This document shows positions 1,265-37,231 of a stretch of DNA of 38,721 nt, piece after piece; position 1 is the stretch's first letter; every line of letters starts with the position of its first letter. The notes beneath the pieces were generated by a model, which did not search any database, was not told the origin of the DNA, and was given only the letters and a program-made list of their open reading frames with translations. This DNA comes from a virus (Duplodnaviria > Caudoviricetes). Position numbers and translations under genes: made by a program. The stretch spans positions 1 to 38,721 of IMG/VR virus record IMGVR_UViG_3300030708_003143; one strand, written 5' to 3'.

Positions 1265-1265
1265 A

Positions 1266-1385: not shown

Positions 1386-1557
1386 AAAACAAACAACATA
1401 TTCTAACGCTGGTAAGGGTGATAAGAGTAGAATTTCAAACCATAAAAAATATTCCGATAATTGGGAAAAGATTTTCGGAAAAGGAAAGAAGAATGAAAAA
1501 ACCATTGATGACATTAGGGGTGGAAGAAAAGCCCGAGATGAAGTCTCCGATAGATAG
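1378..1557 (+). CDS. small basic hypothetical protein, 59 aa (MTKKQTTYSNAGKGDKSR...YSDNWEKIFGK...), not in the ORF track
   Basis: Overlaps the stop of 1266-1385; GKGDKxR...YxxNWxxIF pattern recalled from small phage proteins. Confidence 0.6.
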   Translation: MTKKQTTYSNAGKGDKSRISNHKKYSDNWEKIFGKGKKNEKTIDDIRGGRKARDEVSDR

Positions 1558-1714
1558 TTTAATTGTAGACTTGATATTGGAACACTTTAATGTAGAGAGT
1601 TTAGAAGGTCGTAAGGAAATTCTTACTGGTGACCAATTCTCTGATTTAGTAAAACTGGCAGAAGGTATGTATTACGAAGAAGTTACCAAACACCAAAAGT
1701 TAGGATTAGCTTGA
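1538..1714 (+). CDS. hypothetical protein (MKSPIDSLIVDLILEHF...)
   Basis: 3' part of track ORF 1418-1714; ATG 1538 minimises the overlap with 1378-1557. Confidence 0.5.
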   Translation: MKSPIDSLIVDLILEHFNVESLEGRKEILTGDQFSDLVKLAEGMYYEEVTKHQKLGLA

Positions 1715-2907
1715 AAACTTATTTAACATATGATGATGTAAACATCGTCCCAAAATTCTCAGAAGTTTTATCTCGTGAGAATGTTGACCTATCTACAAGG
1801 TTTACCAAGAACACCACATTGAGTATACCAATAGTATCTTCACCAATGGATACGGTTACAGAAATCAATATGGCTAAAGAGATGTTAGATATGGGTGGTG
1901 TTGGTGTTATACATAGATTTCAAAGTATCGAAAAACAAACTCGTATGATGAAGTCATTACACTACGAATGGGATAGATGGTACAACATAGGTAATCCTGA
2001 AAAGGATAGAACCGACCATACACAAGTATTTGAAGATTGGTGGAATGGTATATATCATTGGAACTCACCACCAACCAAATCTGATTATGAAGACCTACAT
2101 GAATTACTTTGGTTTGCAGATGAAGCTCAAAGAGACGAAGATTATTGGAGTAAAAGACCTTTATGTGCGGCTATAGGAACCACAGGTGATTACTTAGAAC
2201 GGGCACAAGAATTGGTAAAGAATGGTTGTAATGTACTACTTATTGATGTAGCACACGGACACCATAAATTAGTAGGAGAAGCTCTTGAAAAAATCAAGAA
2301 AGACATACAAGGAGTTGAAGTTGTTGCGGGAAACATTGCGACAAGAGAAGGGGCCGAGTTCCTTTTACAAAGTGGAGCCGATGGAATTCGAGTCGGAATC
2401 GGTAATGGTTCATTATGTGAGACGAGAATCAGAACGGGTGTTGGACTTCCTCAGGTTTCTACTCTTCTTGATGTCGTTACCATTTGTGATGATTTTGATG
2501 TTCCTTGTATTGCTGATGGCGGTATTAGGAATATCGGTGATGTATGTAAAGGACTTGCTTGTGGGGCAGATTCGGTCATGTTGGGAAGTCTTCTTTCGGG
2601 TACCAAAGAAAGTCCGGGTCAAATAGAAAAGATAGGTCAATGGCCTAACGAGAAGTTATTTAAAAAATATAGGGGTTCTGCCTCAAGGGACTCAAAAGGA
2701 AATGATAAGAATGTTGAAGGGAATCATAAGGTTGTACCGTATAAAGGGAAAGTCTATAGATTACTCTCAGATATTAAAGATGGAATTCGTAGCTCTTTCA
2801 GTTATGTTGGGGCTAACAATTTGTCTGAGTATCATAGTAAAGTAGAATTTGTAAGGGTTACCCAAGCTGGAACCATAGAAGCTAAACCACATTTGATAGG
2901 AGAATAA
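1711..2907 (+). CDS. guaB: IMP dehydrogenase / GMP reductase family oxidoreductase
   Basis: LTYDDV, SSPMDTVTE, IDVAHGH, AGNIAT, catalytic loop GIGNGSLCETR, IADGGIR, MLGSLLSGTKESPG, YRG; lacks CBS domains. IMPDH versus GMPR unresolved. Confidence 0.85.
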   Translation: MKTYLTYDDVNIVPKFSEVLSRENVDLSTRFTKNTTLSIPIVSSPMDTVTEINMAKEMLDMGGVGVIHRFQSIEKQTRMMKSLHYEWDRWYNIGNPEKDRTDHTQVFEDWWNGIYHWNSPPTKSDYEDLHELLWFADEAQRDEDYWSKRPLCAAIGTTGDYLERAQELVKNGCNVLLIDVAHGHHKLVGEALEKIKKDIQGVEVVAGNIATREGAEFLLQSGADGIRVGIGNGSLCETRIRTGVGLPQVSTLLDVVTICDDFDVPCIADGGIRNIGDVCKGLACGADSVMLGSLLSGTKESPGQIEKIGQWPNEKLFKKYRGSASRDSKGNDKNVEGNHKVVPYKGKVYRLLSDIKDGIRSSFSYVGANNLSEYHSKVEFVRVTQAGTIEAKPHLIGE

Positions 2908-2908
2908 A

Positions 2909-3157
2909 ATGGCATTTAATATGCGAGACGAACTAATAAAGGCGAGTAGGATTCATTTTAAAGCACATATTGAAAAACATAGAATGAATGTTGAAAACCT
3001 ACTTAATAATTCAGTTGGGGTGGCAGAACATCCTGACTTAATGGATAGTATTGAAAAAGAATTGGCTATAATAGCTGAATACGATGATAAACTTGAGATG
3101 TTAAATAAGTATTTTCAAGGTGACTTTGGAGATACGAAGACTTTATTGAATGAATAA
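2909..3157 (+). CDS. conserved phage hypothetical protein (NSVGVAEHPD motif)
   Basis: AGGAG RBS; VG(V/I)xEHPD motif recalled from T4-like marine phages. Confidence 0.7.
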   Translation: MAFNMRDELIKASRIHFKAHIEKHRMNVENLLNNSVGVAEHPDLMDSIEKELAIIAEYDDKLEMLNKYFQGDFGDTKTLLNE

Positions 3158-3464
3158 AATTTGGATACAGATATCCGCTTGGTTAATAGCCTTTAGTTTC
3201 GTATTTGGATTCTTAGGTGGACTAATACTGATTTCTTCGATACCATTTTGGTTATTGTGGAATTGGTTGATACCACCTATATTTGGATTACCAAATATAA
3301 CATTGATTCAATCATTTGGTCTTTGGTTGTTCTTAATGTTGATTAGAAGTACGAAGTTTGACTTTAAACAAACGATGGAAAACATTAAATCACAACAACA
3401 TAAAGATGAGCCGATAGAGTGGAATCAAGTATTCGATTCTGTGAAGAAAAACTATATGGCTTAA
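3150..3464 (+). CDS. membrane protein
   Basis: Hydrophobic segments; WLLWNWLIPPIFGLPNIT. Confidence 0.7.
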   Translation: MNKIWIQISAWLIAFSFVFGFLGGLILISSIPFWLLWNWLIPPIFGLPNITLIQSFGLWLFLMLIRSTKFDFKQTMENIKSQQHKDEPIEWNQVFDSVKKNYMA

Positions 3465-3497
3465 TACTTATACTTTAAGTATTAGGAGATTAAAGAA

Positions 3498-3647
3498 ATG
3501 TCTGTAGAAGAGATATTAGAAATACTAAGAACTTCAATCGAAACAAAAGATTGGGATGTAATTAGTGAATTAATTGAAACCCTTAGTTATGAAGGTGAGT
3601 CCGATGGAGATGAATTTAAAGAGTATCTTGAGGACTTTGACGATTAA
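3498..3647 (+). CDS. small acidic protein, 49 aa (MSVEEILEILRTSIETKDWDVISELIETLSYEGESDGDEFKEYLEDFDD), not in the ORF track
   Basis: AGGAG at 3484-3488; ends 4 nt before the tmRNA. Confidence 0.75.
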   Translation: MSVEEILEILRTSIETKDWDVISELIETLSYEGESDGDEFKEYLEDFDD

Positions 3648-3651
3648 ATAT

Positions 3652-4061
3652 GGGGGTGACTTGGAAATCGACTGGTATTGGTTGATACTTAAGTGCAGCA
3701 GAGATTGAGTAGGTCTCGTAACAAAAGACTCATCAAACCTAATTGGCGATGATAATTCGCTAGACGGGTTGGTTGTTGATTGGCATCTAGCTGAGTATGA
3801 TTACTCACCTATGGTTCCAGTCTCTAATGACCAACCATCTTACGCCTACGCGGCATAAGGTACTGAGTTGTCTAACACTCGGTCATAAAATAAGTTAGAC
3901 ACCAACTCAAAGACACAATGAGTATAAATGATGTACGGAGCTATCCAAAAAAATAGTCGGTGGTTTGTAGGTAACTTCTCGGAGGGTAGTAACCTAACTA
4001 AGCTGTGAATGACTTAATATTGATAATAGACAGGACTCGGGTTCGAATCCCGACACCTCCA
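3652..4061 (+). ncRNA. ssrA: tmRNA (transfer-messenger RNA)
   Basis: 5' GGGGGTG pairs with 3' CACCTCC-A, giving the G3.U alanine identity pair; T-arm TCGGGTTCGAATCCCGA; pk1-like GAGATTGAGTAGGTCTC...ACTC; tag frame 3745-3858 ends YAYAA-stop; CCA not encoded. Confidence 0.95.
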
Positions 4062-4080
4062 CAAAACAGCAAGAAAACAC

Positions 4081-4109
4081 TTGTAATTGGTTATAAAAAG
4101 TTGTAAATT
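4081..4109 (+). promoter_or_regulatory. sigma70-type promoter, probably leaderless transcript
   Basis: TTGTAA-17 nt-TAAATT, with ATG 4116 six nt after the -10 and no SD. Confidence 0.5.
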
Positions 4110-4115
4110 CTATAT

Positions 4116-5552
4116 ATGAAAAAATACTATTATGAAAGAAGTAATTTGCTTGAAAGTGATGTCAACATCAACTTTGAGGAATTACTTTATATGGATGAAA
4201 AGGAAACTTCTAAATGGATTGAAAAACTTAGAAGTTTTATTATATCTGAATGGGATGATAAGGGTATTCCACCAACCATCGGTTCCAATACTAAAGACAT
4301 AAAAAAGAATTTTAAGAAGCTACGAGAGTATGATGTACATAATAAATTTTTGATATCAGATGACGATGGAAATAAAAATGTAATCAAAAATTACAATAAA
4401 CATGCCAGTAGTATAAATCAATTCTTCCCAACTATGTTGAAAACTCGTGTTCAGAATGGTAGTATTTACGATTGGTTTACGGATGAATATAAACACAAGT
4501 TTGAAAAGGTAATATTAAGAATATTGAAAAGAGATTCAATGTATAATTGGTCTAAGTGTGTATTGGATGGTGAAGAATTACCTGAGAACTTTTTTATAGT
4601 TCAACACAAACACAACGCTGTAGAAAGTATTTACAAGACTTTATCCGTTGAAGAAGTAGAGAAGCTGGATGATAAACATAAGACTAATCTACCAAAAGAA
4701 TTGGATGGTGATACATACAAATTCTTAGTTAGAGATTTTCAATTAGGACAAAAATTATTTCCAGCAGGTATTCAAGCATTTAGATTGGGATTGGGTCAAC
4801 CAGCGGTAAACTTTCCACCACTAACGGCTCGTTATTTATATGAACACTATACCAATCATATTGATATCAATAAACTTGAAGATAAACAATTAAATATATA
4901 CGACCCATCAAGTGGTTGGGGTGGTAGAATACTTGGAGCTATGTCTTCACTAAAAAGAATACATTATATTGGTACAGACCCAAACACGGATAATTTTATT
5001 GACGAAGTGGGAATATCAAGATACGAATATGTAGCTAACTTTTTTAACAATGAGGTATTGGAAAGTAATCCATTTTGGGAAGAAGAAAAGAATACATTTC
5101 ATTATTTTCAAGAAGGTAGTGAACACATTGGAAACCATCCTGATTTTCAACAATACAAAGGTAAGTTGGATATGGTGTTTACATCACCACCTTACTTTGA
5201 TAGGGAACAATATTCAGAAGATGAGGAACAATCCTACAAGGCTTACCCAAAGTATGATGATTGGAGAGACAATTTTCTCAAACCAACTTTGACTAATGCA
5301 TATGAAAGTTTACGAAATGACAGATATTTATTATGGAACATCGCCGATATCAAAATCGGTAAAGATAAATACCACCCTCTTGAACAAGATAGTATCGATG
5401 TAATAACGGCCCTCGGTGGAGAATATCAAGGTAAACTCAAAATGTTGATGACATCTATGGTTGGGGTTGACCAATCAAATGTCAAAAACTCGGTAAAGGT
5501 TAATGGAACATATTTGAAGTATGAACCGATATTCATTTTTTACAAAAAATAA
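4116..5552 (+). CDS. amino (N4-C/N6-A) DNA methyltransferase-like protein
   Basis: SAM-binding YDPSSGWGG and catalytic FTSPPY motifs. Confidence 0.85.
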   Translation: MKKYYYERSNLLESDVNINFEELLYMDEKETSKWIEKLRSFIISEWDDKGIPPTIGSNTKDIKKNFKKLREYDVHNKFLISDDDGNKNVIKNYNKHASSINQFFPTMLKTRVQNGSIYDWFTDEYKHKFEKVILRILKRDSMYNWSKCVLDGEELPENFFIVQHKHNAVESIYKTLSVEEVEKLDDKHKTNLPKELDGDTYKFLVRDFQLGQKLFPAGIQAFRLGLGQPAVNFPPLTARYLYEHYTNHIDINKLEDKQLNIYDPSSGWGGRILGAMSSLKRIHYIGTDPNTDNFIDEVGISRYEYVANFFNNEVLESNPFWEEEKNTFHYFQEGSEHIGNHPDFQQYKGKLDMVFTSPPYFDREQYSEDEEQSYKAYPKYDDWRDNFLKPTLTNAYESLRNDRYLLWNIADIKIGKDKYHPLEQDSIDVITALGGEYQGKLKMLMTSMVGVDQSNVKNSVKVNGTYLKYEPIFIFYKK

Positions 5553-7161: not shown

Positions 7162-7436
7162 TGATATTAGAAATCTTATTAGGTTTGTTGGTTGTAATTT
7201 TTATTACTGAAAGTTATGTTATTTGGAATTTACTCAACAAGGTAGAGCTATTAGAAACTTGGGTCGAAGACTTTAGTGATAGGGTAGCAGGAACTTGGAA
7301 GGAAATTAAGGACATAGACTCGACAGGTCATTTCGAAGCAGATGACGAGGTCGGTAGTATATTTACATCCATCAAAGAAACAATCGAAGAATTAAATCAA
7401 TACATAGAAGAGGATACAAATGCCAAGGAAAGCTAA
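7161..7436 (+). CDS. membrane-anchored hypothetical protein
   Basis: N-terminal TM helix; FEADDEVG motif. Confidence 0.7.
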   Translation: MILEILLGLLVVIFITESYVIWNLLNKVELLETWVEDFSDRVAGTWKEIKDIDSTGHFEADDEVGSIFTSIKETIEELNQYIEEDTNAKES

Positions 7437-8139
7437 AAAAGGTTCACCAAGATATTATTTCACACAAAAAACTGAAGATGCTATAATCCGTTACAATAAA
7501 GAGGAACGGGCTTACATGAAGGAAAGAATTTATAACGACCACATAAGAAGGGCGTTTGATAAGTTGTGTGAGAACATCATTCATACATTTAAATTTTATT
7601 ACTTTGATGTTCCAAGTGAACAAGTAAAACAAGAAGTGATATCATTTTTGGTGTTGAATATGCACAAGTTCAAGGAAGGTAAGGGAAAGGCTTTCTCATA
7701 CTTTAGTATTGTTGCTAAGAATTATTTGATTCTACATAACAACAAGAATTACGCTCACTATAAATCTCATGACACGATGGATGTATTGGATTGGAACCAA
7801 AAGACCAAAGACCAAGAGATTAAGAAGGAAGAAGACGAAAGTATAAAAGAATATGTTCATCAATTTGTTGAGTATTGGGAAAACAACATTACCAATGTTT
7901 TCACAAGAAAGAAAGATATATTGGTTGCTGATTCTGTATTGGAGATATTCAGAAGAGCTCAACATATTGAGAACTTCAACAAGAAAGCTCTGTACATTAT
8001 GATTCGTGAGATGAGTGGTTCTAAGACTCAACATATTACTCGTATTGTAAACACGATGAAGAAATATCATCAGAACCTCTCACAAGAGTACATGAATGTT
8101 GGGCACATCGATACAACAAGTACAGGTTCATTCTTGTAA
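7420..8139 (+). CDS. putative phage sigma-factor-like protein (T4 gp55-like region 2)
   Basis: KFKEGKGKAFSYFSIVAKNYLI resembles sigma region 2.3-2.4 (the FAYFT signature of gp55-like factors). Confidence 0.5.
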   Translation: MPRKAKKGSPRYYFTQKTEDAIIRYNKEERAYMKERIYNDHIRRAFDKLCENIIHTFKFYYFDVPSEQVKQEVISFLVLNMHKFKEGKGKAFSYFSIVAKNYLILHNNKNYAHYKSHDTMDVLDWNQKTKDQEIKKEEDESIKEYVHQFVEYWENNITNVFTRKKDILVADSVLEIFRRAQHIENFNKKALYIMIREMSGSKTQHITRIVNTMKKYHQNLSQEYMNVGHIDTTSTGSFL

Positions 8140-8178
8140 CAAAATGGTATTACAAATTGTTACACTCAGTAACAAAAT
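8135..8178. promoter_or_regulatory. candidate enhancer (bEBP-binding) sites
   Basis: Inverted repeat TGTTAC-ACTCA-GTAACA at 8158-8174; direct repeat GTAACAAAAT at 8136 and 8169. Confidence 0.45.
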
Positions 8179-8189
8179 AATACACTATG

Positions 8190-8219
8190 TAAAAAACCAC
8201 TTATTCGAGTGGTTTTTTA
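8190..8219. terminator. intrinsic (bidirectional) terminator
   Basis: TAAAAAACCACT-TATTCG-AGTGGTTTTTTA hairpin. Confidence 0.85.
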
Positions 8220-8280
8220 TTGCCTATTTGTAAATGTAACAATATTATGACATAAAAAAAATTTTAAAAAATAGGGTACT

Positions 8281-8297
8281 TTGGTACAGTTATTGTA
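8281..8297 (+). promoter_or_regulatory. candidate sigma54 (-24/-12) promoter of the pilin cassette
   Basis: TTGGTAC-AGTTA-TTGTA versus consensus TGGCAC-N5-TTGCW; spacing correct, but GT instead of GC at -12. Confidence 0.5.
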
Positions 8298-8358
8298 CTA
8301 TATAGGTAGGAACACTCACAAGGAGTTTCCAAAACAACAAAGTACAAGGAGAACTGAA

Positions 8359-9006
8359 ATGTTCAAATCTTTTTTAAGAAAATTAAAAAGTCGTAAAGGT
8401 AATTCACTAGCTGAATTCGCAGTAACGACAGCAATGATGGCTACATTAGCTACAACAGCCGCTCCAAAATTTGGTGCAGTTGGTGCAGGAGCTAAAGAAA
8501 AGAAAACGATGGCTAACATCGATAAGATTTTGACTGTAGCTAACAACTATTATAACCAAACACTATCTGAAGAAGGAAAAGGTAGATTTCCAGGACAAGA
8601 GAAATATGATGTCGCCGTTGGTGGTGTCGATTTATCTGAAGGAGCTTCCACAGATGAAACTCTTGAAGCTTATGTGGAAACAATACTTGACCAAAAAGTA
8701 TCTTACACAGATGACTTAAGTGAATTCGTATATGTGTTCTCACCAGCAGTTGATGATGATGACGCATTACAAAACGATTGGATGAGTCTTGAAACATCAG
8801 TAGGATTCGATGGTAACTCTGAGATTGGAGCACTTGACTTCAAGAAAGACTTCGGTAACAATGGTTTAACATCACCATTTCAGGATGGTTCTTACGCTTA
8901 CCTAATTATACCAGGAAGTGGTAGTGGTACATCAGCACAAGCACCTGTTCTTGTTGTGATAGATACTGAAAATCCATCTAAACTACATAAGACTTTAGTA
9001 CCTTAA
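8359..9006 (+). CDS. type IV pilin-like protein with non-canonical G|NSLAE cleavage site
   Basis: AAGGAG RBS; basic leader MFKSFLRKLKSRKG, Glu at +5, hydrophobic helix ending APKF. Confidence 0.75.
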   Translation: MFKSFLRKLKSRKGNSLAEFAVTTAMMATLATTAAPKFGAVGAGAKEKKTMANIDKILTVANNYYNQTLSEEGKGRFPGQEKYDVAVGGVDLSEGASTDETLEAYVETILDQKVSYTDDLSEFVYVFSPAVDDDDALQNDWMSLETSVGFDGNSEIGALDFKKDFGNNGLTSPFQDGSYAYLIIPGSGSGTSAQAPVLVVIDTENPSKLHKTLVP

Positions 9007-9044
9007 TTCTTAACCAAACGGCGAGAGCCAGAAAGAGAAATAAA

Positions 9045-9497
9045 ATGAAGAAACTAAAAAACCAAAACGGATTTACCTTGATTGAATTAATCATGGTGAT
9101 GATAATATTAGGTATATTATCAGCCGTAGCCATCCCAAGATACTTGGAGACTATTCAAAAAGCTGAAGAAGCAGCTGAAGATGCAGTCATCAGTAATATT
9201 GGTGTAGCACTTGAAAACTACGGAGTTCATAAACTCATAGATAGTGGAAGAGCAATATGGCCTGATAACCCTTTTGACGCACTAAAAGATAAACCACAGA
9301 CTTATACTGATGATGGTACAAACGCCGACACAGATAACGAATGGACATTTGTCGATGGTGACCCAGCGTACATTACCCATCAACGCTCGGACAACTCAAG
9401 ATGGAAATGGGAGTATGACGCAGGTATAAACACAGGAACAGACGCAGACACAACTGGTTTCTTAGGAAACAGAGAAAGTCTATCAAGTGGTCAATAA
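9045..9497 (+). CDS. type IV pilin (prepilin N-terminal cleavage/methylation domain)
   Basis: G|FTLIELIMVMIILGILSAVAIPRY. Confidence 0.92.
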   Translation: MKKLKNQNGFTLIELIMVMIILGILSAVAIPRYLETIQKAEEAAEDAVISNIGVALENYGVHKLIDSGRAIWPDNPFDALKDKPQTYTDDGTNADTDNEWTFVDGDPAYITHQRSDNSRWKWEYDAGINTGTDADTTGFLGNRESLSSGQ

Positions 9498-9960
9498 AAA
9501 CAATGGTTTTACCTTAGTCGAACTGATAATGGTAATGGTTATCATTGGGATTTTAGCCGCAGTTTCGATACCGAGATTTACGAATATTGTCCGACAATCT
9601 GAAGCAGCTTCCGAACAAGGAGTTTTGATTAATTTGGTCGCTGCTTTAGATACTTATAGTCAAGAAGAGTTTATCGATACTGGTGTCCAAAAGTGGCCAA
9701 GCAATCCCTTTGATGCACTTAATAAAGTACCACAATCCTACGACAAATCAAATACCACTTTAATGGTAGAGATGGACGATAGTGATTGGATTTTTACTGG
9801 TGAAGCAAGTAATGATTTTAAAAATTCAATTGTCCATCGTAGAAAAGAAGATAGTCTAGCAATATGGACTTACAATTCATCAACGGGTGAGATTGGATAT
9901 TCTAATCCACCATATCAACCAAATCAAGTCGTATACAGACCTGATTTACAAGGACAATAA
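9487..9960 (+). CDS. type IV pilin (prepilin N-terminal cleavage/methylation domain)
   Basis: G|FTLVELIMVMVIIGILAAVSIPRF. Confidence 0.92.
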   Translation: MVNKNNGFTLVELIMVMVIIGILAAVSIPRFTNIVRQSEAASEQGVLINLVAALDTYSQEEFIDTGVQKWPSNPFDALNKVPQSYDKSNTTLMVEMDDSDWIFTGEASNDFKNSIVHRRKEDSLAIWTYNSSTGEIGYSNPPYQPNQVVYRPDLQGQ

Positions 9961-9962
9961 AA

Positions 9963-10403
9963 ATGAAAATACTAAAAGAGAAAATGAATGAAGGTTTTTC
10001 TTTAGTAGAGTTAGTAATGGTAATGGTCATCTTGGGAATACTCGCAGCAGTTGCAGTACCTAAGATGACATCCGTTCTAAATCAAGCAGCAGTAAGAGCT
10101 GAAAAAACTACAGTAGATACAATATGGGCAGGATGTGAATCTTACGCTAGTGATAAACTAATCGAAACTGGAACTGAAGTGTGGCCTTACAATCCACTCA
10201 CAGTTATGGGTAGGACTCGTAACATCAAGATAAATCTAACATTAGGTGTACCCGATGAAGATAATGAATGGCAGTTTAGTCTGATTGACGCAGGAGAACC
10301 TGCTATCTTTCATCAAAGACCTGATGATGAGATATGGTATTACACATATGATTCTACAGCATTTGAATTAGCCGAGGAACCAATTAGATACATAGCACAA
10401 TAA
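9963..10403 (+). CDS. type IV pilin (prepilin N-terminal cleavage/methylation domain)
   Basis: G|FSLVELVMVMVILGILAAVAVPKM. Confidence 0.92.
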   Translation: MKILKEKMNEGFSLVELVMVMVILGILAAVAVPKMTSVLNQAAVRAEKTTVDTIWAGCESYASDKLIETGTEVWPYNPLTVMGRTRNIKINLTLGVPDEDNEWQFSLIDAGEPAIFHQRPDDEIWYYTYDSTAFELAEEPIRYIAQ

Positions 10404-10404
10404 T

Positions 10405-10830
10405 ATGAATAATCAAATAAAAGAATTACTTTTATATGGTGGAATATTTTTATGTTTCGCATATGTTATATTCGCACCTGAAAAGGATTCTACACCCAAA
10501 GTCGAAACACCATCATTGGTAGATTTCGATGAACATCCAATAGTAGCTTGGTTAGCATATGATAGAGAAGGTGGCCCTTGTGTTAAGGTCAGATATGAAG
10601 TCAAGAGGAAAGAAACCAAGCTATTTATGTTTTCTGAAAGTGGTAAGTTAGTACATCAAACTCCTATCTCGTTGAGTCCTCATAGAGACGGAAGAAAAAG
10701 AATAGAAACATATACATGGAAGTTATATAGAACTGAATGGTCATCTCACATTGAGCCAGGTTTCTATACAGTTGTGGTTGGAACGAAGTATGACAAGAGA
10801 GGTATCGGAACCGAGATAGAAGTATTATGA
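10405..10830 (+). CDS. membrane-anchored protein with possible FlgD-like Ig domain
   Basis: N-terminal TM helix; MFSESGKLV...YTW...IEPGFYTV pattern. Confidence 0.55.
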   Translation: MNNQIKELLLYGGIFLCFAYVIFAPEKDSTPKVETPSLVDFDEHPIVAWLAYDREGGPCVKVRYEVKRKETKLFMFSESGKLVHQTPISLSPHRDGRKRIETYTWKLYRTEWSSHIEPGFYTVVVGTKYDKRGIGTEIEVL

Positions 10831-11432
10831 AGTACCTAACACTTTTATTATTATTGAGTGTTACATATTCTCAAGACATCCAACAAACATCAGAAACTAA
10901 AAGAGATGTTGCTTACGGACAAGATTGTGATGATACAGAATATAGAGATTACAAAGGATATCCAGCTTGGAAAGGTTATGGTGGATGGTTATCTGAATGT
11001 GATTCAATCCGTTCTGTAAACTTAGATAGAGAATTCGCGGAAAGAGCTAAGATACAGAAAAGAGAAAAGGCAATTCAAGATAGTATAGATACACAAGAAG
11101 CATTGGCAGAGATAGATAATTTAGATTTAGATGCTATGTGGGAAAATACCGTATGGGAAGAAATACAAGATGTCACAACCGTATATGCTGAAGTCGAACA
11201 GATAACAGCAGTTGCTGGTGTTCGTGGAGCAGAAGCAGAAGATGAGGCACTCGACCATTTATATTACAGACGAAGTATGAAAGGATTGGCTCTGATAGAT
11301 TTACAGAAGGCTTATGGTAAGTTAATAATCAAAAAAGACAACTTAATTAAAGTTGACCCTAATCATCCCAAATTAAATAAAATAAATAACTTAATAACAC
11401 AATTAGAGGTGAAAATTAAAAAGTATTCTTAA
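10827..11432 (+). CDS. secreted hypothetical protein
   Basis: Signal peptide MKYLTLLLLLSVTYS; AVAGVRGA motif. Confidence 0.7.
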   Translation: MKYLTLLLLLSVTYSQDIQQTSETKRDVAYGQDCDDTEYRDYKGYPAWKGYGGWLSECDSIRSVNLDREFAERAKIQKREKAIQDSIDTQEALAEIDNLDLDAMWENTVWEEIQDVTTVYAEVEQITAVAGVRGAEAEDEALDHLYYRRSMKGLALIDLQKAYGKLIIKKDNLIKVDPNHPKLNKINNLITQLEVKIKKYS

Positions 11433-11469
11433 TATTTATTGGTACACATACCGATGAGAGAGAAGTACA

Positions 11470-11844
11470 TTGAGGATATTATTATTGTTATTAATGGTTA
11501 CATCCTTATATTCATCACCGACATTCAAAGTGTTTAATGATAACTTAAATTTTGAAATGGATAAAACTGCCCACATGATGGTTAGTGGTGGTTTGTATTA
11601 TCAAGGTTTGGTTTTTCAAGATTCAACTCAGAATGAAACCAAGGCAGCTGTTTTTGCATTTTGTATTGGGGTGGGTTGGGAAACCTATCAAGGTTTGGCA
11701 CATAAAAGACATGGTGGATTTTCCGTACAAGATTTACAATACAATGTATTGGGAATATTTTTAGCACATTTACAAAAAGAATTTTGGTTTTATTTCAAAA
11801 AAATTAAATCTAACAGAAAACTAACACATTTTTCCGACAAGTAG
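11470..11844 (+). CDS. YfiM/DUF2279-like membrane protein
   Basis: DKTAH...GVGWE...GGFSVQDLQYNVLG. Confidence 0.6.
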   Translation: MRILLLLLMVTSLYSSPTFKVFNDNLNFEMDKTAHMMVSGGLYYQGLVFQDSTQNETKAAVFAFCIGVGWETYQGLAHKRHGGFSVQDLQYNVLGIFLAHLQKEFWFYFKKIKSNRKLTHFSDK

Positions 11845-11930
11845 CTTATATTTATGTACGAAGACTAAAGATAAATTTTAGTTTTTAAAGCGACAATACA
11901 TAATCTTATCACTTAATAAAGGAGAAACCG

Positions 11931-12260
11931 ATGAGAGCCTTAATATCTTTGATGTTAATGGGCTCGTTGATAGCCCAAAACTCCATAAAGGAGAGTCAAC
12001 AATTTCCACAACCAATCGTTCCGTTTGAATTATCATACAATGATGTTTTATCTGTAAATGAAAATCCCATTGGAAAAATTAATGTAGTTTTTTTCATAGA
12101 TGAAAATGGTGATGTTGAGGATGCGGTTATTTTAGATTCATTCGATGTAAAGATGAATCCAGTTGTACTTGACAAAGTTAATCAAACCAAGTATCAACCA
12201 GCTATACAAAATGGAAGACCTGTTAAAGTCAAATATCATTTACCTATAGTATTTAAGTAA
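11931..12260 (+). CDS. TonB C-terminal domain protein with signal peptide
   Basis: GKINVVFFIDENGDV...YQPAIQNGRPVKVKYHLPIVF; AAGGAG RBS. Confidence 0.85.
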   Translation: MRALISLMLMGSLIAQNSIKESQQFPQPIVPFELSYNDVLSVNENPIGKINVVFFIDENGDVEDAVILDSFDVKMNPVVLDKVNQTKYQPAIQNGRPVKVKYHLPIVFK

Positions 12261-12263
12261 AAT

Positions 12264-12293
12264 AAAAAAGGGGAATTTTCATTCCCCTTTTTT
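12264..12293. terminator. bidirectional intrinsic terminator between convergent genes
   Basis: AAAAAAGGGGAAT-TTTC-ATTCCCCTTTTTT. Confidence 0.9.
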
Positions 12294-12301
12294 TTCATAC
12301 A

Positions 12302-12517
12302 TTAACTTGGTCTGTTCTTCTTTTTCCATTTCTGTTTAAAGATACCCCAAGAACCTTTCTTACCCTTTTCCTTACCTTTTACTTTCTTACCTTTTTTCTT
12401 TTTCTTCTTCTTAATCTCATCGGCATATTCGTAATTGGCCATATGGATATTCCATTCTTGTGGAACGACTCCACATACGAAGCAGGATAATAAGATTGAC
12501 AATAATATACTTTTCAT
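12302..12517 (-). CDS. secreted Lys-rich peptide (paralog 2)
   Basis: Signal-like N-terminus, then EIKKKKKKKGKK; AAAGGA RBS. Confidence 0.75.
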   Translation of the reverse strand: MKSILLSILLSCFVCGVVPQEWNIHMANYEYADEIKKKKKKKGKKVKGKEKGKKGSWGIFKQKWKKKNRPS

Positions 12518-12527
12518 TCAGTCCTTT

Positions 12528-12725
12528 CTACTTGGAACCAAAGACCTTTGAGAAGAAACCTTTTTTCTTCTTTTTACCCTTTTGTCCCATTTTCTTACCT
12601 TTCTTCTTTTTCTTCTTTTTGATTTCTTCCATACCAGCCATATTCATCTCAGAGGACGCATACGCAGTAGGGACAGCACCAAAAAAAATTACTAAAGAAA
12701 GTATACTCGTGAGTATATGTTTCAT
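12528..12725 (-). CDS. secreted Lys-rich peptide (paralog 1)
   Basis: Signal peptide ending AYA, then EIKKKKKKKGKK...GFFSKVFGSK; AGGAG RBS. Confidence 0.8.
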   Translation of the reverse strand: MKHILTSILSLVIFFGAVPTAYASSEMNMAGMEEIKKKKKKKGKKMGQKGKKKKKGFFSKVFGSK

Positions 12726-12806: not shown

Positions 12807-13505
12807 TCAAGTTTTTCTTATTGGATATACATCGGACTGGGCTAAGTAATCCGAAAGACTAACAACACTACAATCTTTAAATATTTCTGCTATAATAGTA
12901 TGATTATCCATTCTCTTAACACCCTTCGAGTTTATATACATGACTCTTTCATTTTTATGTCTCATACAGTTATAAATATCGTCATACATTTCGTCTGTGA
13001 GTGTAGACTCTAATGTTTTATAGTTTGAAAAATAAAGTAAATCATTCAACCGAATTGATTCATTAGTTGTGCCAGGAAAACAAACTTTGTTTTTATTTAT
13101 CTTGGGTTGATATTTTTCAAATTGAAGACTTGTTATGTAACTCAAATCAAATCGCGTCATCAAAACCACATCTCTCGGATTTGGTTCGGTTTCCTTAAGT
13201 AATTCGAAACTTTCAAACATGGAATACAATTTACTTGCTCTTCTTTTACTTGCCTGTTCTACTCCAAACTTTTTTTGTTTTTCTATTTTATAAGATGTAG
13301 GTTTATAATGATGTAGAATATCTGCCTCTTGTTCAGTATTCCAACAATGTAAAACAATATCTATTTCATCGAAATATTTTTTGTTTGGTTTTATAACACC
13401 TTCGAGTAACTCATTATATGTGGTTTCGGCTTTATAGAATCCACCTTGTCCATCTTTACCTGATTTACCTCCAAGTATACCACTTAAAACTATTTTAAGA
13501 TTCAT
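12807..13505 (-). CDS. putative glycosyltransferase-like protein
   Basis: LSG..., DIVLHCW, YKP...IE, VLMTRFDL and LNDLLYF pattern of viral GT-like proteins. Confidence 0.45.
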   Translation of the reverse strand: MNLKIVLSGILGGKSGKDGQGGFYKAETTYNELLEGVIKPNKKYFDEIDIVLHCWNTEQEADILHHYKPTSYKIEKQKKFGVEQASKRRASKLYSMFESFELLKETEPNPRDVVLMTRFDLSYITSLQFEKYQPKINKNKVCFPGTTNESIRLNDLLYFSNYKTLESTLTDEMYDDIYNCMRHKNERVMYINSKGVKRMDNHTIIAEIFKDCSVVSLSDYLAQSDVYPIRKT

Positions 13506-14300
13506 CTACTTACCTTTATTAAAATCTCCATACTTTTGACCATTTTCTTTTTCTATAATAGACTTGAAATAATCAACTGTAAAATCACTTCTGTGTTTGT
13601 TATAACTATCGAATATTTTCATATCTTTTTCTTTTCCATGTGTTTGTAATTGCATGATTATTGCTTTTCTATCTTGAGGACTCATGTTGCTTGAAGAACC
13701 ATGTAACAATCTGTGATTAAATAAAAGCATATCACCTGGTTCCATCTCTACATTCATTATACCATATTTTTCAGTTGCTCGTTTCATTTCAGATGGCTTT
13801 GCTCTTTGCTTATGTGTTAAGTTGTTCCAAACAATATCTTGGTGTTCAACCATGCCGAGTTTATGTGAACTCGGAACAATTCTAAGACATCCATTTTCCA
13901 ATGTCATCTCATCAATAGCTATGAATACTTGTGCAAATTTTTTCCAATCCTTCTTAGGGTCACAACCAGGTGCAAATGTTCTTATATTTGGCCATTCTTG
14001 ATGCCACATTTCTTCAGGTCCGATGAATGCGGCTTTATTACTAACCATGAGATGATTTACATGAGGATTTTTATTTTCAAGTACTTGTAAACAAAAATTA
14101 TTCAGATGTTCATTAGTCAATATTTCATCAAATGGAGATACACTATGTAGTTGACCATAACCCCAAGGCACATCTGAAAATGGCAAATAAACTTTTGGTT
14201 CTAATTCTTCGAGTTTTTTGTGTGCCCTATATACCCAATCATCATTCAAGGCTGATTTGATTAGAATATATCCATCATTGTTATAGTTTTCGAATGTCAT
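13506..14300 (-). CDS. PhyH-family Fe(II)/2-oxoglutarate dioxygenase
   Basis: WHQE, IAIDEMTLENGCLRIVPSSHK, MEPGDMLLFNHRLLHGSSSN...R. Confidence 0.88.
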   Translation of the reverse strand: MTFENYNNDGYILIKSALNDDWVYRAHKKLEELEPKVYLPFSDVPWGYGQLHSVSPFDEILTNEHLNNFCLQVLENKNPHVNHLMVSNKAAFIGPEEMWHQEWPNIRTFAPGCDPKKDWKKFAQVFIAIDEMTLENGCLRIVPSSHKLGMVEHQDIVWNNLTHKQRAKPSEMKRATEKYGIMNVEMEPGDMLLFNHRLLHGSSSNMSPQDRKAIIMQLQTHGKEKDMKIFDSYNKHRSDFTVDYFKSIIEKENGQKYGDFNKGK

Positions 14301-14327
14301 GAAAATAAATATAGTTTTTTAAAATAA

Positions 14328-17327
14328 TTATGGTGCAGAACTTTTGTAAGGATGGTCTGCTGGTAAGTTACCTTCCAATCCCCACTTGTGTGCCAGATAA
14401 CCTTCTGCTTTTTCTAATGTTGATATATCTTGAAAGGCTGTTCCAGGTATGTCTGCTACGGCGAAAAATTCTGCTAGTTTACCTTCCAATTCCACCGATG
14501 ACCTATTCCTCATCAATCTCAACTGTTGGTTTGTTTGAATTGAGTTGTCATAATCATTGACTGGTGTAAAAGCATTTGCTCCATCTATTCTATTGCCTAT
14601 TTGATTGCCTGATTTATTAAAGAAACAAGCAACTACATGCCATGTGTTTTGTGTTAAACCTGATGTCCAATCTTGTTTATTGCCTATTGTTGAGCTTATT
14701 CTATTGAAGGCGTCTACTCCACCACTACCAATACCATCTAAATCTAACTCACCCGGCCAGGTATTATTAGACGCACCTGCACTCAAGGCGTAATCTCGTT
14801 TTGGTGAAGTATTTGTTTCATAACTCCAAATGGAATCTTTGTTACTATCAGTTCCTTCAAATCTAAACACACCGATTGCCCAATGGTTACCACTTGATGC
14901 TTGTGTTCGGTAACCTGAACTTTGTAAAAATTCACCATTACCATCAAAATCAAATACATTCAATCCATTTTGAGTATTACCGACCGTTGGTGTTCCCCCA
15001 ACTGTCATCGTGTAGGTTCCTGATTTATCAGTCACACCAGTCAAGGTTGTTCCACTTGTTGTGTAGTTTGAGGAATCTGATGCATCAATCCAAGCAGCAG
15101 TTGTTATATCGTTGGCTGGTGACCACGCCGCTACAGGAGTCGTGTATAAGAAATTGAATCTATTATCAGTCACGAATTGACTATCACTATTTCCACTTGT
15201 ATTCCAAGTTATTCCAGTTTGCCATATATCACCATTGTATTCCAAAGCACCAATGTCATCAGTTAATGAATCACTACCTGTTGGAATGAATTCAAAATTA
15301 GTATATGTGGTATTTCCTGCATCCACTATTGAGGCAGTATTTATCGGTCTGAAATCAAAACTGGCTGAATCTACCAAAAGAGGTTCTATATCGGCTTGTG
15401 TATAATTGTTTGAACTTGTTATTCGAGCTTCAAATGCTTCTGCATCACTTCTATGACCACTTATTGATTCAGCTAGATTATTCATCACTACGGAACCGAA
15501 ATTGATATCTTGACCGGCTTGGACATTCAAAACCATTATATCATTCTTTTCCACACTATTGAAAATCGTATTATTGTATACAAAATGACCGCCAACACTA
15601 ACACCACCATCCAACATACCACCTTTTACCATGATACCGCCTGTACAATTCCATCCAACATTATGGTGGATATATCCGTTGAATCCTTCACCATCACCAT
15701 CGAATCGTATACCATATTTAATGGTATCGTGTACCCAATTATATCTTACTTTAGCATTTCGTTGCTGTGATGTCATGAGATGTATCATGGCTCCATCACT
15801 TTGTAAATAACCACTTTCGGCTAAATCATTATATTCTATAATTGGTGCGTTGCCTGAATTTAATGTAGAGGATGCAGCCGTTTTTCTAAAAGTATTGTGA
15901 CTAACAAGGTTATTATCACCCATCAATCTAAGAGTTGTCATCACGGATGATAAATTGGCAACAGTTTTATCTATGTAATTAAAATAACAATCTATGATTG
16001 TAGTATCTCCACCTTGTGTATGAATTACATCACCATCAGTATATCTAAACGCACATCCGTTAAAACTAACATTTGGACTACTTGTAATTCTCGTTTGAGT
16101 CTCAAAGACTTCATTGGTAGCTGGAGCAATAGTTGAACCTGAATTGATTTGATTTAACATATGTGCATAACAACTGGCATATTGAAAATTACAATCACGG
16201 ACTTTTAAATGATTGGCATTATTACCTTTGATTGTGGTGGAGAAGAAATTAATGTTTTCGATGGATACATCTTTTGCCGTTACATTTAAGGAATAACTCT
16301 GTTGTTTTGCTCTTATGTTTGTGGTACTTGGAACGGCATCATCCTTTAACCAAACATACAAGTATTTTGTAGTATTGTCAAAGAACCATTCATTTTCACT
16401 ATTCAAGTATTCTAATTTATTTTCCAAATAGTAATAGTGATGTTTTGTTTTCCATGAAGCAACAGGATGATACGATAATCTAATAACATCATTAGTATTA
16501 TCTAATGATTGTGAAGTTACTAATTTTGTATAAGTTCTGAATGAACCAACATTCAAGTTAATCAAAGAACCCGTAACATTGAATCCATTACCCAATCCTT
16601 GTTGTGCCTCAACAAAATCATATAAACTGGCACTGAAACTACCATCAAAAATATGTGCTACATCAACTATTTCTCCGTTGTCATAATAATAATGACTACC
16701 AGTTCCATTACCTAAAATACTACCTGAAATATTTGTAATGTTTCCATTATTCTTATATTCATAATATCCATGACCCCAATTATTAAAGTTATATACGGTT
16801 TCATCAGTCCATTGAGCACTTGGATATCTTGCGTTTATAACTTCATCTCTGTTGTGAAAAAGTTGCCAGATTTCAACATTCGAATTTAATTTTATTTTGT
16901 AAATGGTTTTGTTACTAAGTGTTTGGTTGGTATCCGTAATGATATCAGTTGTATGTGTTGACCATTCACCACCATTTACAGAACTATCTGCCAAATCACT
17001 TATTGGTCTTGTTCCATCAAATGTAACATTTTCATAATTATATCCTCTTATTGACAAACCATTATTTGTTATTTCTTCTTCATCGAATTCATATGAACCT
17101 GTTCTAAAATATATTGTGTCTTGGTTTGTTATTTGTGACTGTGCGAAGGCTAAGGTTTGAAATGGATTATTTATATCCCCACTAACTGATACATCATCAG
17201 TACCATCATTTGATACAAAAAATGGAGTTGGAGGCCAGATGTGTTCGTTATTATAATAAACATCATCCACCTCAGTATTATTAAAATAAATGTTTTGTGC
17301 GGTGTTAATTCTTATAGACCGAGACAT
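14328..17327 (-). CDS. right-handed beta-helix protein with C-terminal LamG-like domain (tailspike/depolymerase-like)
   Basis: GxD...NPFQTLAFA..YFRTGSY start, parallel beta-helix repeats (YNWVHD, GIRFDG), DFRP..IVDAG..DIGALE, and terminal EGYLAHKWGL..LPADHPYK. Confidence 0.7.
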   Translation of the reverse strand: MSRSIRINTAQNIYFNNTEVDDVYYNNEHIWPPTPFFVSNDGTDDVSVSGDINNPFQTLAFAQSQITNQDTIYFRTGSYEFDEEEITNNGLSIRGYNYENVTFDGTRPISDLADSSVNGGEWSTHTTDIITDTNQTLSNKTIYKIKLNSNVEIWQLFHNRDEVINARYPSAQWTDETVYNFNNWGHGYYEYKNNGNITNISGSILGNGTGSHYYYDNGEIVDVAHIFDGSFSASLYDFVEAQQGLGNGFNVTGSLINLNVGSFRTYTKLVTSQSLDNTNDVIRLSYHPVASWKTKHHYYYLENKLEYLNSENEWFFDNTTKYLYVWLKDDAVPSTTNIRAKQQSYSLNVTAKDVSIENINFFSTTIKGNNANHLKVRDCNFQYASCYAHMLNQINSGSTIAPATNEVFETQTRITSSPNVSFNGCAFRYTDGDVIHTQGGDTTIIDCYFNYIDKTVANLSSVMTTLRLMGDNNLVSHNTFRKTAASSTLNSGNAPIIEYNDLAESGYLQSDGAMIHLMTSQQRNAKVRYNWVHDTIKYGIRFDGDGEGFNGYIHHNVGWNCTGGIMVKGGMLDGGVSVGGHFVYNNTIFNSVEKNDIMVLNVQAGQDINFGSVVMNNLAESISGHRSDAEAFEARITSSNNYTQADIEPLLVDSASFDFRPINTASIVDAGNTTYTNFEFIPTGSDSLTDDIGALEYNGDIWQTGITWNTSGNSDSQFVTDNRFNFLYTTPVAAWSPANDITTAAWIDASDSSNYTTSGTTLTGVTDKSGTYTMTVGGTPTVGNTQNGLNVFDFDGNGEFLQSSGYRTQASSGNHWAIGVFRFEGTDSNKDSIWSYETNTSPKRDYALSAGASNNTWPGELDLDGIGSGGVDAFNRISSTIGNKQDWTSGLTQNTWHVVACFFNKSGNQIGNRIDGANAFTPVNDYDNSIQTNQQLRLMRNRSSVELEGKLAEFFAVADIPGTAFQDISTLEKAEGYLAHKWGLEGNLPADHPYKSSAP

Positions 17328-17329
17328 TT

Positions 17330-21711: not shown

Positions 21712-22131
21712 TTGTCAAGTGTATTAGAAAAAGATTTAGATCCTGATGTAAAAATTGGTGTACCATTACCAATGGATCATACTGATGGTAGTGGTTTTTT
21801 TCCTGGTACTTCAACAACCCTAACACAAACAAGTAGTAATATTAGAAACTTACTATTGACTAATAAAGGTGAACGAGTTGGACAACCTGAATTTGGATGT
21901 GGTCTTTTACAAGTATTATTTGAACCCATGTCTGAAACCTTAATCGATGATGTGAAGTCTACAATTGAAGAAGCAATGTCTCAATGGTTACCTCATGTAA
22001 TTGTGAAAGAATTAAGTGTTCAACCTGATGAAGATGAACCTAACAAACTAATTATTGAAATAGAATTCTCTTTGACGATAAGACCTGAAGTACATGAAAG
22101 TCTTACATTAGATTTTCTAATTGGAGAGTAG
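21712..22131 (+). CDS. baseplate wedge protein, gp25/GPW family
   Basis: NIRNLLLTNKGERVGQPEFGCGL..LFEP...WLPHV. Confidence 0.9.
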   Translation: MSSVLEKDLDPDVKIGVPLPMDHTDGSGFFPGTSTTLTQTSSNIRNLLLTNKGERVGQPEFGCGLLQVLFEPMSETLIDDVKSTIEEAMSQWLPHVIVKELSVQPDEDEPNKLIIEIEFSLTIRPEVHESLTLDFLIGE

Positions 22132-22141
22132 GAGAAACTAA

Positions 22142-24127
22142 ATGCCACAAAAAGAAATAAGATATTTAAATAAAGATTTTGATTCATTCAAATCGAATCT
22201 TATCGAGTTTGCAAAACAATACTATCCTAATACCTATAATGATTTTAACGAGTCATCACCAGGTATGATGTTTATTGAAATGGCATCTTATGTTGGTGAT
22301 GTTCTTTCATATTATGTAGATTCTCAGTTTAAAGAACAACTATTAGCATATTCCACAGACCAACAAAATTTGTATGAGATGGCACAATCATTTGGATATA
22401 AACCCAAGTTGGCTACAGCATCACAAGGTGTGGTTGATATTTTTCAAGTGGTTCCAGCACAAGGTAGTGGTGAAAATAATAAACCAAATTATTCATATGC
22501 TTTACAAGTCAATGAGGGTAGTACACTTGAATCTACTACAGGTGTGACATTTCGTGTTCGTGAAAATGTAAACTTTTCATATTCAAGTTCTTTTGACCCT
22601 ACTACGGTGACAACTTATGAAGTCGATAGTGGTAACGAAGTAACTTATTATTTATTGAAAAAATCTGTAAGAGTTGTAAGTGGAAATATTTCCGAAGAAC
22701 AAATTGTATTTGGAGGAGCAGAAAAATATCCGAGAGCTCTATTAGGACAAGCTAATGTATTGGAAATAATTTCTTGTACGGATAGTGATGGAAATAATTG
22801 GAAAGAAGTACCTTTTTTAGCACAAGATACTGTATTTGATTCCGTTAGAAATACAGAAGCAAACGATCCTGAATTATCACAATATAGTGATGAAGCTCCA
22901 TACATTTTAAAACTTCTAAAAACACCAAGAAGATTTGTTACATTTATTCGTGGTGATGGAAAAACAGAATTGAGATTTGGTAGTGGAATAAGTGACAATC
23001 CTGATGAAGAAATAATACCAAATCCAAATAATGTTGGTTCTTCATTACCTGGTAGTCCAACATATTTAGATACATATTTTGACCCAAGTAACTTTTTAAA
23101 TACAAAGGCTTATGGTCAAGCACCAGCAAACACTACCTTAACAATAAAATACTCATATGGTGGTGGGATAACAGACAATGTTCCAAGTGATACAATTACA
23201 TCTTTGTCGAACTTTCAATATACTATCAATACTAATGGTCTGAGTAGTGGTGTTTTAGACACAGTTGTAGAATCACTCGGAGTAACAAATCCACAGCCAA
23301 CCACTGGTGCAAAGGGAGCTGAAAGTACAAAAGAACTTAAAGAAAATGCACTTGCTTACTTCCAATCACAAGGAAGAGCAGTAACAAAAGAAGATTACAT
23401 AACAAGAGTTTATTCTTTACCACCAAAATTTGGAGCTGTAGCAAAAGCTTATATTGTACAAGATGAACAACTAAATTTACCTGCATTTCAAAAGGAAGTT
23501 TCAACAAATATATTTGTCGACCAAAGATTTAATGATGTGAAGGCTCAAGATGTTGGGAGTAGTAATAGATTACCAAATCCAAATGCACTCAATTTATATT
23601 GTTTAGGATACAATGGAAGTGGACAATTGACACAACTTAGTATTGCAACCAAAGAAAATATCAAAACCCATCTGTCACAATATCGTCTTGTAACGGATGC
23701 TGTAAATATAAAAAATGCATTTATAATTAACATTGGTGTGAAATTCAATTTTATAGCTAGAGCTGGATTCAATAAAGAAGAAGTTACACTTCGTTGTATC
23801 GAAAGGGTTAAACAATTCTTCAATGTAGCTAGATGGCAAATTAATCAACCAATCATAATTCAAGAATTAGCTTATGAATTGTCCATAGTAGATGGGGTTG
23901 GAGCTATAGTACCTCCGACACAAGACAATCCAAAAAATTTACAAGTGTTGATTACTAATAAGTTTTCAAGCTCTGATGGTTACTCAGGTAATATTTATGA
24001 TATTAATTACGCAACCAAAGATGGTATAGTCTACCCATCACTCGACCCAAGTATATTTGAATTAAAGTATCCGAATACAGATATTGAAGGTCGGGCTATA
24101 GGTGACTCCACTGGTAATCAATTATAG
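22142..24127 (+). CDS. baseplate wedge subunit (T4 gp6 / baseplate-J-like)
   Basis: DFDSFKSNLIEF, YVGDVLSYY, FGYKPK, LRFGSG, QGRAVTKEDY. Confidence 0.88.
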   Translation: MPQKEIRYLNKDFDSFKSNLIEFAKQYYPNTYNDFNESSPGMMFIEMASYVGDVLSYYVDSQFKEQLLAYSTDQQNLYEMAQSFGYKPKLATASQGVVDIFQVVPAQGSGENNKPNYSYALQVNEGSTLESTTGVTFRVRENVNFSYSSSFDPTTVTTYEVDSGNEVTYYLLKKSVRVVSGNISEEQIVFGGAEKYPRALLGQANVLEIISCTDSDGNNWKEVPFLAQDTVFDSVRNTEANDPELSQYSDEAPYILKLLKTPRRFVTFIRGDGKTELRFGSGISDNPDEEIIPNPNNVGSSLPGSPTYLDTYFDPSNFLNTKAYGQAPANTTLTIKYSYGGGITDNVPSDTITSLSNFQYTINTNGLSSGVLDTVVESLGVTNPQPTTGAKGAESTKELKENALAYFQSQGRAVTKEDYITRVYSLPPKFGAVAKAYIVQDEQLNLPAFQKEVSTNIFVDQRFNDVKAQDVGSSNRLPNPNALNLYCLGYNGSGQLTQLSIATKENIKTHLSQYRLVTDAVNIKNAFIINIGVKFNFIARAGFNKEEVTLRCIERVKQFFNVARWQINQPIIIQELAYELSIVDGVGAIVPPTQDNPKNLQVLITNKFSSSDGYSGNIYDINYATKDGIVYPSLDPSIFELKYPNTDIEGRAIGDSTGNQL

Positions 24128-37223: not shown

Positions 37224-37231
37224 GAGAGGAC

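Follow-up and report, generated by a model that had tools for sequence, protein, structure and literature searches.

Why would a phage carry several type IV pilin genes and no recognisable means of assembling them? The question is raised by IMG/VR record IMGVR_UViG_3300030708_003143, a linear virus record that is 22% complete and was analysed over its whole length of 38,721 nucleotides (hereafter the window). A preliminary description had proposed that four tandem prepilin genes at 8359–10403 are fed into the host's pilus machine, where they replace or jam the pilus, and had considered this an undescribed system. We favour, with a probability of roughly 0.5, the explanation that the host builds a filament which the phage recoats, and that the benefit is the exclusion of rival pilus-binding phages; the exclusion benefit is its least certain part.

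All four genes are plus-strand open reading frames (ORFs) with a class III leader (basic residues, Gly at −1, Glu at +5 and a hydrophobic helix). P1 (8359..9006), a family A prepilin of 215 aa with a large variable insert, starts with an ATG behind a GGAGAA site and has a leader that ends G/NSLAEF, where the slash separates positions −1 and +1. The other three are family B prepilins with Pfam N_methyl matches: P2 (9045..9497; G/FTLIE; E 4e-9), P3 (9487..9960; GTG start, G/FTLVE; E 2e-8) and P4 (9963..10403; G/FSLVE; E 1e-6). P1 had no match in Pfam, PHROG or NCBIfam, and a sequence-profile search of the PDB gave nothing better than weak pilin matches (best E 0.017). Within family A, Gly −1 is invariant in 18/18 rows and Glu +5 in 68/68, and the Asn of P1 at +1 is atypical. 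An AlphaFold model of P1 built on 68 mature relatives (pLDDT 82; a version with 18 rows reached only 46) consists of a long helix, the large insert and a three-stranded sheet. In the VIA comparison the 17 structures ranked best for this model were all pilins or pseudopilins, with middling Z scores of 4.2–5.9 (rmsd 2.2–4.4, 67–131 residues aligned), and Foldseek returned nothing from PDB or BFVD at E ≤ 0.001. P1 is predicted to have a type IV pilin fold and is the likely major (shaft) subunit, the role we assume for family A.

The globular signature reported for P2–P4 is real, with nine positions (P73, N75, P76, W100, F102, I110, H112, R114 and Y124) invariant in 8/8 aligned phage and host proteins. 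The three had also been called paralogs; they do form one family, but their tree does not have the look of a local tandem duplication. In this quick tree of 143 columns, P2 clusters with three pilins of two array-bearing hosts, L108 and L111 (support 98), P3 with four other paralogues from the same two (support 99), and P4 falls in an all-viral clade of 24 rows (support 99). The arrays themselves (at least 18 prepilins, with internal duplication, at L108:10004-20616 and 12 at L111:10004-17623) may be a surface-variation system; in L111, an Mrr-type endonuclease gene lies between pilC and the array. Among phages, P1 proteins are 44–99% identical, and the family comprises 2839 clusters at 90% identity, phage and host together. 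Among cultured phages, P1 had no match and P2 five weak ones. In one contig (L013/L066:10718) the P2 frame stops after 43 residues, from either an assembly error or a truncation.

These genes belong to a phage genome. As described, they share the window with a myovirus baseplate module, encoding gp25 and a wedge subunit (21712..24127, +; Pfam GPW_gp25, PHROGs 261/43/6/219); of the T4-type structural genes, the window shows only these baseplate genes, gp25 and a gp6-like wedge. A search with P1 yielded 77 viral loci and one with P2 17, and gp23, the T4-type capsid protein, was found in 9/50 cassette-bearing records and gp25 in 27/49. The 126 kb record G017, with a four-pilin version like the window's, encodes terminase, portal, prohead protease and sheath, and with its gp23, gp20 portal, terminase, sheath and baseplate the phage is a T4-like myovirus. 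The window is not chimeric: independent contigs (e.g. L021, L022, L027 and L055) repeat its arrangement of upstream core gene, cassette and baseplate, and its GC content is level. Tyrosine integrases were not found in the five largest records (66–72% complete), in which serine integrases were not searched.

Pilus machinery was looked for in the window and in related, incomplete virus records, applying family cut-offs and with positive controls that worked. PilB, PilC, PilT and PilD are missing from the window, as noted before (none in 43 ORFs scanned), and the search of other records likewise gave nothing above cut-off: PilB/PilT in 0/49, prepilin peptidase, secretin and MshEN each in 0/50, and PilC in 0/5 of the largest. 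G017 had no pilus machinery in 110 ORFs scanned, a set that omitted ORFs below 90 aa and those already known from the window. Eleven weak PF00437 matches were rejected as PilB, being short P-loop stretches below the cut-off.

Matching machinery was found in bacteria. Scanning genomes with the P1 alignment turned up 34 loci; 12 of these are titled Marinimicrobia and 3 carry the titles of other groups, the latter probably through mis-binning. The host operon starts with a response regulator, a prepilin peptidase (pilD), a PilB-like ATPase, a sigma54 activator and PilC; there follow the pilins (one to five of family A, then family B, family C and three minor pilins) and then a LamG protein, an ExeA-PilM fusion, PilO, a secretin, a CHASE2 cyclase (an adenylate cyclase), an FG-GAP protein and a TPR protein. 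The peptidase (A24) sits two genes before the activator, and a second locus with PilT is present in 4/5 hosts. Since no machinery was found in the phage records searched, all of them incomplete, and the pilins match this operon, which encodes peptidase, ATPase, platform and secretin, feeding them into the host machine, as the preliminary description had it, is the natural inference, with cleavage and incorporation presumed. Marinimicrobia (SAR406) are the probable host, judging from these gene relationships.

The phages carry a defined part of this pilin set. The 332 distinct pilins compared form six families, of which phages have A, B and C only (97, 61 and 19 viral sequences), with L094, a contig of a metagenome-assembled genome with phage gene order, counted as viral here and in the tree, identity and palindrome comparisons. 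The three minor, tip-type families, which include ComGD/GspH-like and PilV-like pilins, comprise 16, 15 and 13 host sequences and not a single viral one, and the LamG protein, like the tip pilins, is never carried by phages. The 22 viral P1 rows all group (support 96) with the final A copy of the hosts, which reads through into B, whereas host A copies upstream of it often end in a terminator-like hairpin; the window's P1 lies on a long viral branch. The best phage–host identity is 83% for family A and 79% for family B.

The region in front of the cassette is also shared with the host. A sigma54-like −24/−12 promoter (GG-N10-GT; consensus GG-N10-GC) lies at 8282..8296 (+), and such a motif precedes 49/59 distinct viral and 60/64 host family A genes, nearly every host A copy having its own. 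Its weight comes from its position and not from its frequency in the window, where the motif alone is not significant (3 matches, a number reached in 7/100 shuffles). Across the loci, family A genes account for 63/112 viral and 59/80 host matches, against 10 and 5 in one shuffle; of 121 matches to the viral pattern in IMG/VR, only 23 lie beside a P1, and 41 have short flanks. A sigma70 scan stayed at chance level (22 vs 20.6). About 110–150 bp before the promoter, at 8135..8174 (+), are overlapping palindromes resembling TGTAAC-N5-GTTACA, which are candidate upstream activator sites. Such palindromes occur ~100–170 bp upstream in 39/48 viral and 52/55 host promoter-bearing regions, compared with 1.4 and 1.6 in shuffles, and may be bound by the host activator. 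Between palindromes and promoter, a hairpin with a T-run (8191..8218, +) was recognised by eye in several phage copies; it was not listed by the terminator scan and is a possible terminator shielding the cassette from read-through. The sigma54 gene is present in 5/5 hosts and the activator lies within the host operon, while sigma54 and the activator helix-turn-helix were each found in 0/5 of the largest phage records. The promoter would be read by host sigma54 together with the operon's own activator. It is unusual for a phage operon to rely on sigma54 and an activator that both come from the host, and a literature search found no such case. Some loci have further copies of the motif: another conserved sigma54-like motif behind the cassette (L030:10411, L040:2782, L041:5279, L042:8093, L056:8347 and L093:15565) and a second P1-type promoter (L085:3856 and L087:13087).

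The unit is wider than the four pilins, extending from the control region at ~8135 to at least 11432. At 10405..10830 (+) lies a small membrane-anchored protein that by synteny accompanies many cassettes and possibly has an Ig-like domain; in the ESM Atlas it groups with viral clusters only above 0.85 and with Big_14 (57% of members) at 0.80, a weak lead, and it had no match in the host loci examined. The next gene (10827..11432, +) encodes an exported protein whose C-terminal domain has an orthologue at the distal end of the hosts' pilus locus: whole-genome searches placed it behind the TPR gene in 5/5 host genomes (48–56% identity), its profile finding nothing when run on the host loci alone and the ESM Atlas giving no usable match. 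A pilin accompanies this gene in 52/55 viral loci with enough upstream DNA. A stand-alone exported TonB C-terminal domain (11931..12260, +; Pfam TonB_C E 4e-10) is by synteny a frequent, not a constant, companion, and a terminator-like hairpin found on both strands by the terminator scan (12264..12293) closes the plus-strand block.

The cassette moves, and its versions get swapped among close relatives. At the window's site it is present in 15/69 relatives with at least 900 bp downstream and empty in 54/69, counts that include several near-identical strains and empty relatives that may have the cassette elsewhere; the sigma54-like motif goes with it (15/15 filled sites, 0/54 empty ones). The upstream neighbour belongs to 21 different gene families over 72 loci. 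Three versions occur: P1-P2-P3-P4, as in the window; P1 with one P4-like pilin; and P1, B, C and a P4-like pilin. These versions are dispersed over a tree built from two adjacent core genes (31 hand-picked loci), where the window's nearest row, L067, carries a different version from the window's. In five phages (L038:9118-9765; L047, L068, L078 and L079) the gene immediately before the cassette encodes a membrane protein with a domain for cyclic-nucleotide binding; the host pilus locus has its CHASE2 adenylate cyclase towards the end.

All four pilins are under purifying selection, with dN/dS values of 0.17, 0.08, 0.14 and 0.16 for P1–P4, like the core neighbours (sets of 11–43 sequences at ≥70% identity, with synonymous sites near saturation). 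Within P1, pN/pS is 0.02 in residues 1–20, the assembly helix, and rises to as much as 0.46 in the insert. Close relatives of the cassette are present in ocean RNA libraries: parts of 7400–12300 were contained in 14 RNA runs. In 7/7 of the runs examined, contigs at 90–99% identity cover stretches from 8319 to ~10700–11100, several of them bridging neighbouring pilin genes, and the flanking genes are barely covered. The segment 8109–8309 has no cover in 3/3 RNA runs (run X15, whose kind is not on record, covers all 30 bins), and this edge hints, weakly, that transcription begins close to the promoter.

Taken as a mechanism, host sigma54 and the operon's activator would transcribe the cassette alongside the host pilins, the host peptidase would cleave the phage pilins, and the host motor would build a filament that is mixed or made mostly of phage subunits, beneath tip proteins of the host. 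Such a re-coated pilus would keep rival pilus-binding phages from attaching. That phage pilins are incorporated into the host filament seems quite probable from the genes compared. Exclusion was chosen as the benefit because close relatives exchange versions, heads found only in phages have evolved, and the sole tested precedent works in this way.

Several points weigh against this explanation. It is drawn from genes, with no cultured host, and nothing indicates that cassette phages or their rivals bind the filament. The link to the host consists of homology and one genome of 401 in the phylum that holds a related phage (capsid 68%), which has no P1 match and may itself be mis-binned. The P1 family was found in only 6/201 genomes of the phylum sampled and P2 in 33/301, and therefore the system is patchy or the genomes are incomplete. 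The window's pilins are only 47, 66, 53 and 41% identical to the best host copies (P1–P4, the 66% of P2 being to an L111 copy), and the quick tree would allow transfer of P2 and P3 in either direction. The −12 element reads GT and not GC in 47/49 viral promoters (and in some host copies), and 10/59 viral upstream regions have no sigma54-like motif. No record is more than 72% complete, so the absence of machinery means that it was not found, and it may sit elsewhere in the genomes. There is no signal of positive selection (pN/pS below 0.5 in every 20-codon stretch), which counts against a fast arms race, whereas the P-FimU proteins of Pseudomonas prophages discussed below are described as highly diverse (PMC12952977); here, P1 varies among phages and the cassette has its three swapped versions, but dN/dS is 0.08–0.17. 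Finally, since the RNA evidence consists of contigs from runs chosen by 7400–12300, it speaks for presence and not for level, strand or start.

In a first alternative, the pilins would be a supply and not a disguise, the phage keeping or boosting filaments so that the cell stays attached to particles or neighbours and progeny are freed near new hosts. Cyanophage psbA, which keeps photosystems running, is an analogy. The kept host promoter and gene order, purifying selection with no diversifying signal, phage copies that are in some cases 79–83% identical to host pilins, and a host LamG-domain protein typical of adhesion all agree with this. Simple supply would favour host-like pilins, and for this reason the three versions swapped among close relatives, the all-viral P4 clade and the long viral P1 branch speak against it; neither the LamG protein nor the tip pilins are ever carried. 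We regard supply as the main rival, though rather unlikely.

The host system could alternatively be a short pseudopilus like that of type II secretion, with the phage subunits retuning secretion and not an exposed pilus. The operon has an ExeA-like ATPase, a weak T2SSB match and no PilT, its secretin scores about equally as GspD and PilQ, family B pilins match GspG best, and the window encodes a protein sorted as in type IX secretion (T9SS) and a PorV-like protein. Against a pseudopilus, family A can have as many as five copies, each with a promoter of its own, and host arrays hold 12 to at least 18 pilins; these features, the large variable insert of P1 and the LamG protein fit an exposed, variable filament, and PilM- and PilO-like parts are present. 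This alternative is clearly unlikely.

Jamming, in which phage pilins would act as an assembly poison and leave the cell without pili, fares worse. Pilus loss is the outcome when Aqs1 binds PilB (PMC13436744), overexpressed or mismatched pilins can disturb assembly, as with FimU overexpression (PMC12952977), and P1 has its Asn at +1; the hosts, however, have the same Asn or a Gln there, and a poison needs neither two to four full-length pilins in host order nor conserved heads. Of the two outcomes first proposed, replacement fits better, given full-length heads, host gene order, a host-type promoter and strong purifying selection on the assembly helix, and jamming is very unlikely. That the cassette is an artefact or a passenger (through a chimeric join, as flanking host sequence or as captured DNA of no effect) is hardly credible, for although the record is a 22% fragment and 54/69 relatives have no cassette at the site, there are 77 viral loci, clean filled and empty sites, purifying selection, a conserved promoter and presence in RNA libraries.

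Host-built, phage-recoated filaments would have consequences beyond this locus. The cassette gives a gene-based link between a large phage clade and uncultured Marinimicrobia, draws attention to a filament system of these bacteria that is unstudied, and environmental "SAR406 pilin" reads may be partly viral. A more far-reaching version, which we hold to be doubtful, is that a non-integrating T4-like lineage plugs into the pilin regulon of abundant SAR406 bacteria with swappable coats shared in both directions with host arrays, expressed while it lingers in slow-growing cells. If that were true, a share of wild SAR406 pili would be phage-made, and competition between phages would shape the surface of an ocean bacterium.

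The rest of the window holds further genes. The conserved core gene at 7420–8139, which precedes the cassette, may be a late sigma factor, a label that no library match supports. The stretch 264–5552 encodes a peptide deformylase with a SEC-C motif, an HhH-GPD glycosylase, an IMPDH/GMP reductase and a DNA methyltransferase. On the minus strand, 12302–12725 holds two small exported lysine-rich paralogues, with relatives near the cassette at several genomic sites, and 12807–18142 an island with a PhyH dioxygenase, a 999-aa protein and a repeat-rich 270-aa protein, which is not present in the closest relatives L021/L022. Within 34536–38262, an 895-aa exported protein has a T9SS type A sorting domain (TIGR04183, above cut-off) and a weak cohesin match; a PorV/PorQ-like protein follows it (E 2e-17, below cut-off), and the two are possibly a second host-surface module of the phage.

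How the system relates to known ones can be taken from the host side first. The host operon resembles the mannose-sensitive haemagglutinin (MSH) pilus system, defined by mshA/E/G/L/M and by loci that have no prepilin peptidase (Denise et al. 2019, PMC6668835), in being a single locus with an ExeA/MshM-like ATPase, an MshEN-bearing motor, pilins followed by LamG, and no PilT. The matches concerned (TIGR03015 at E 1e-47, MshEN with T2SSE, and T2SSF) are to generic families and not to MSH-specific profiles. The secretin scores 95–102 bits as MshL (cut-off 250), compared with 179–184 as PilQ and 162–185 as GspD, none reaching its own cut-off. We rejected the MSH label, as the secretin is not of the MshL type and the locus has its own prepilin peptidase. 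For control, the nearest parallel is RpoN with PilR, which drive a major pilin gene from a GG-N10-GC consensus (PMC7170775). There as here, a sigma54 activator lies inside the pilus cluster and a promoter of the GG-N10-GC type stands before the pilin (PMC7170775, PMC8657755); the difference is that here phages, too, carry the sigma54-like promoter and the palindromes, with GT as the usual −12 element.

On the phage side, the locus can no longer be called undescribed in kind, since PMC12952977 shows for P-FimU that a phage copy can take the place of a pilus subunit and lists PilA-like genes in lytic phages. P-FimU copies from F10-like Pseudomonas aeruginosa prophages replace the host FimU (Sztanko et al., Cell Rep 2026, PMC12952977). 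As here, a phage copy of a host pilus subunit comes with a conserved promoter and no machinery, incorporation being demonstrated there and presumed here. P-FimU is one tip minor pilin of temperate phages; the present cassettes have two to four promoter-proximal, probably shaft, pilins and an exported partner, occur in T4-like phages, with probable host-type sigma54 control and no arms-race signal measured, and never include the FimU-like family. The P-PilA and PilA-like genes listed there, from Xylella prophages and from lytic phages including the Synechococcus phages ACG-2014f and S-CAM7, with a proposed function, are closer in being major-pilin-like and in occurring in non-temperate, partly marine phages. 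They are reported as single genes, with neither a multi-pilin cassette nor a captured control region in the parts covered, and similarity between the ACG-2014f pilin and P2 is confined to residues 2–48. The term "Marinimicrobia" does not occur in one supplement file of that paper, and our literature search, which covered few subscription journals, found no paper on pilins in Marinimicrobia phages. The cassette would work like P-FimU and is not a P-FimU: its subunits are different ones and come several together, and it has a partner gene and host-type control. Pilus mimicry, so far a matter of one tip subunit in Pseudomonas prophages, would with it reach very common ocean phages in the form of a cassette of several subunits under host regulation, and what appears new relative to P-FimU and P-PilA is this multi-subunit form with its partner gene and host-type control.

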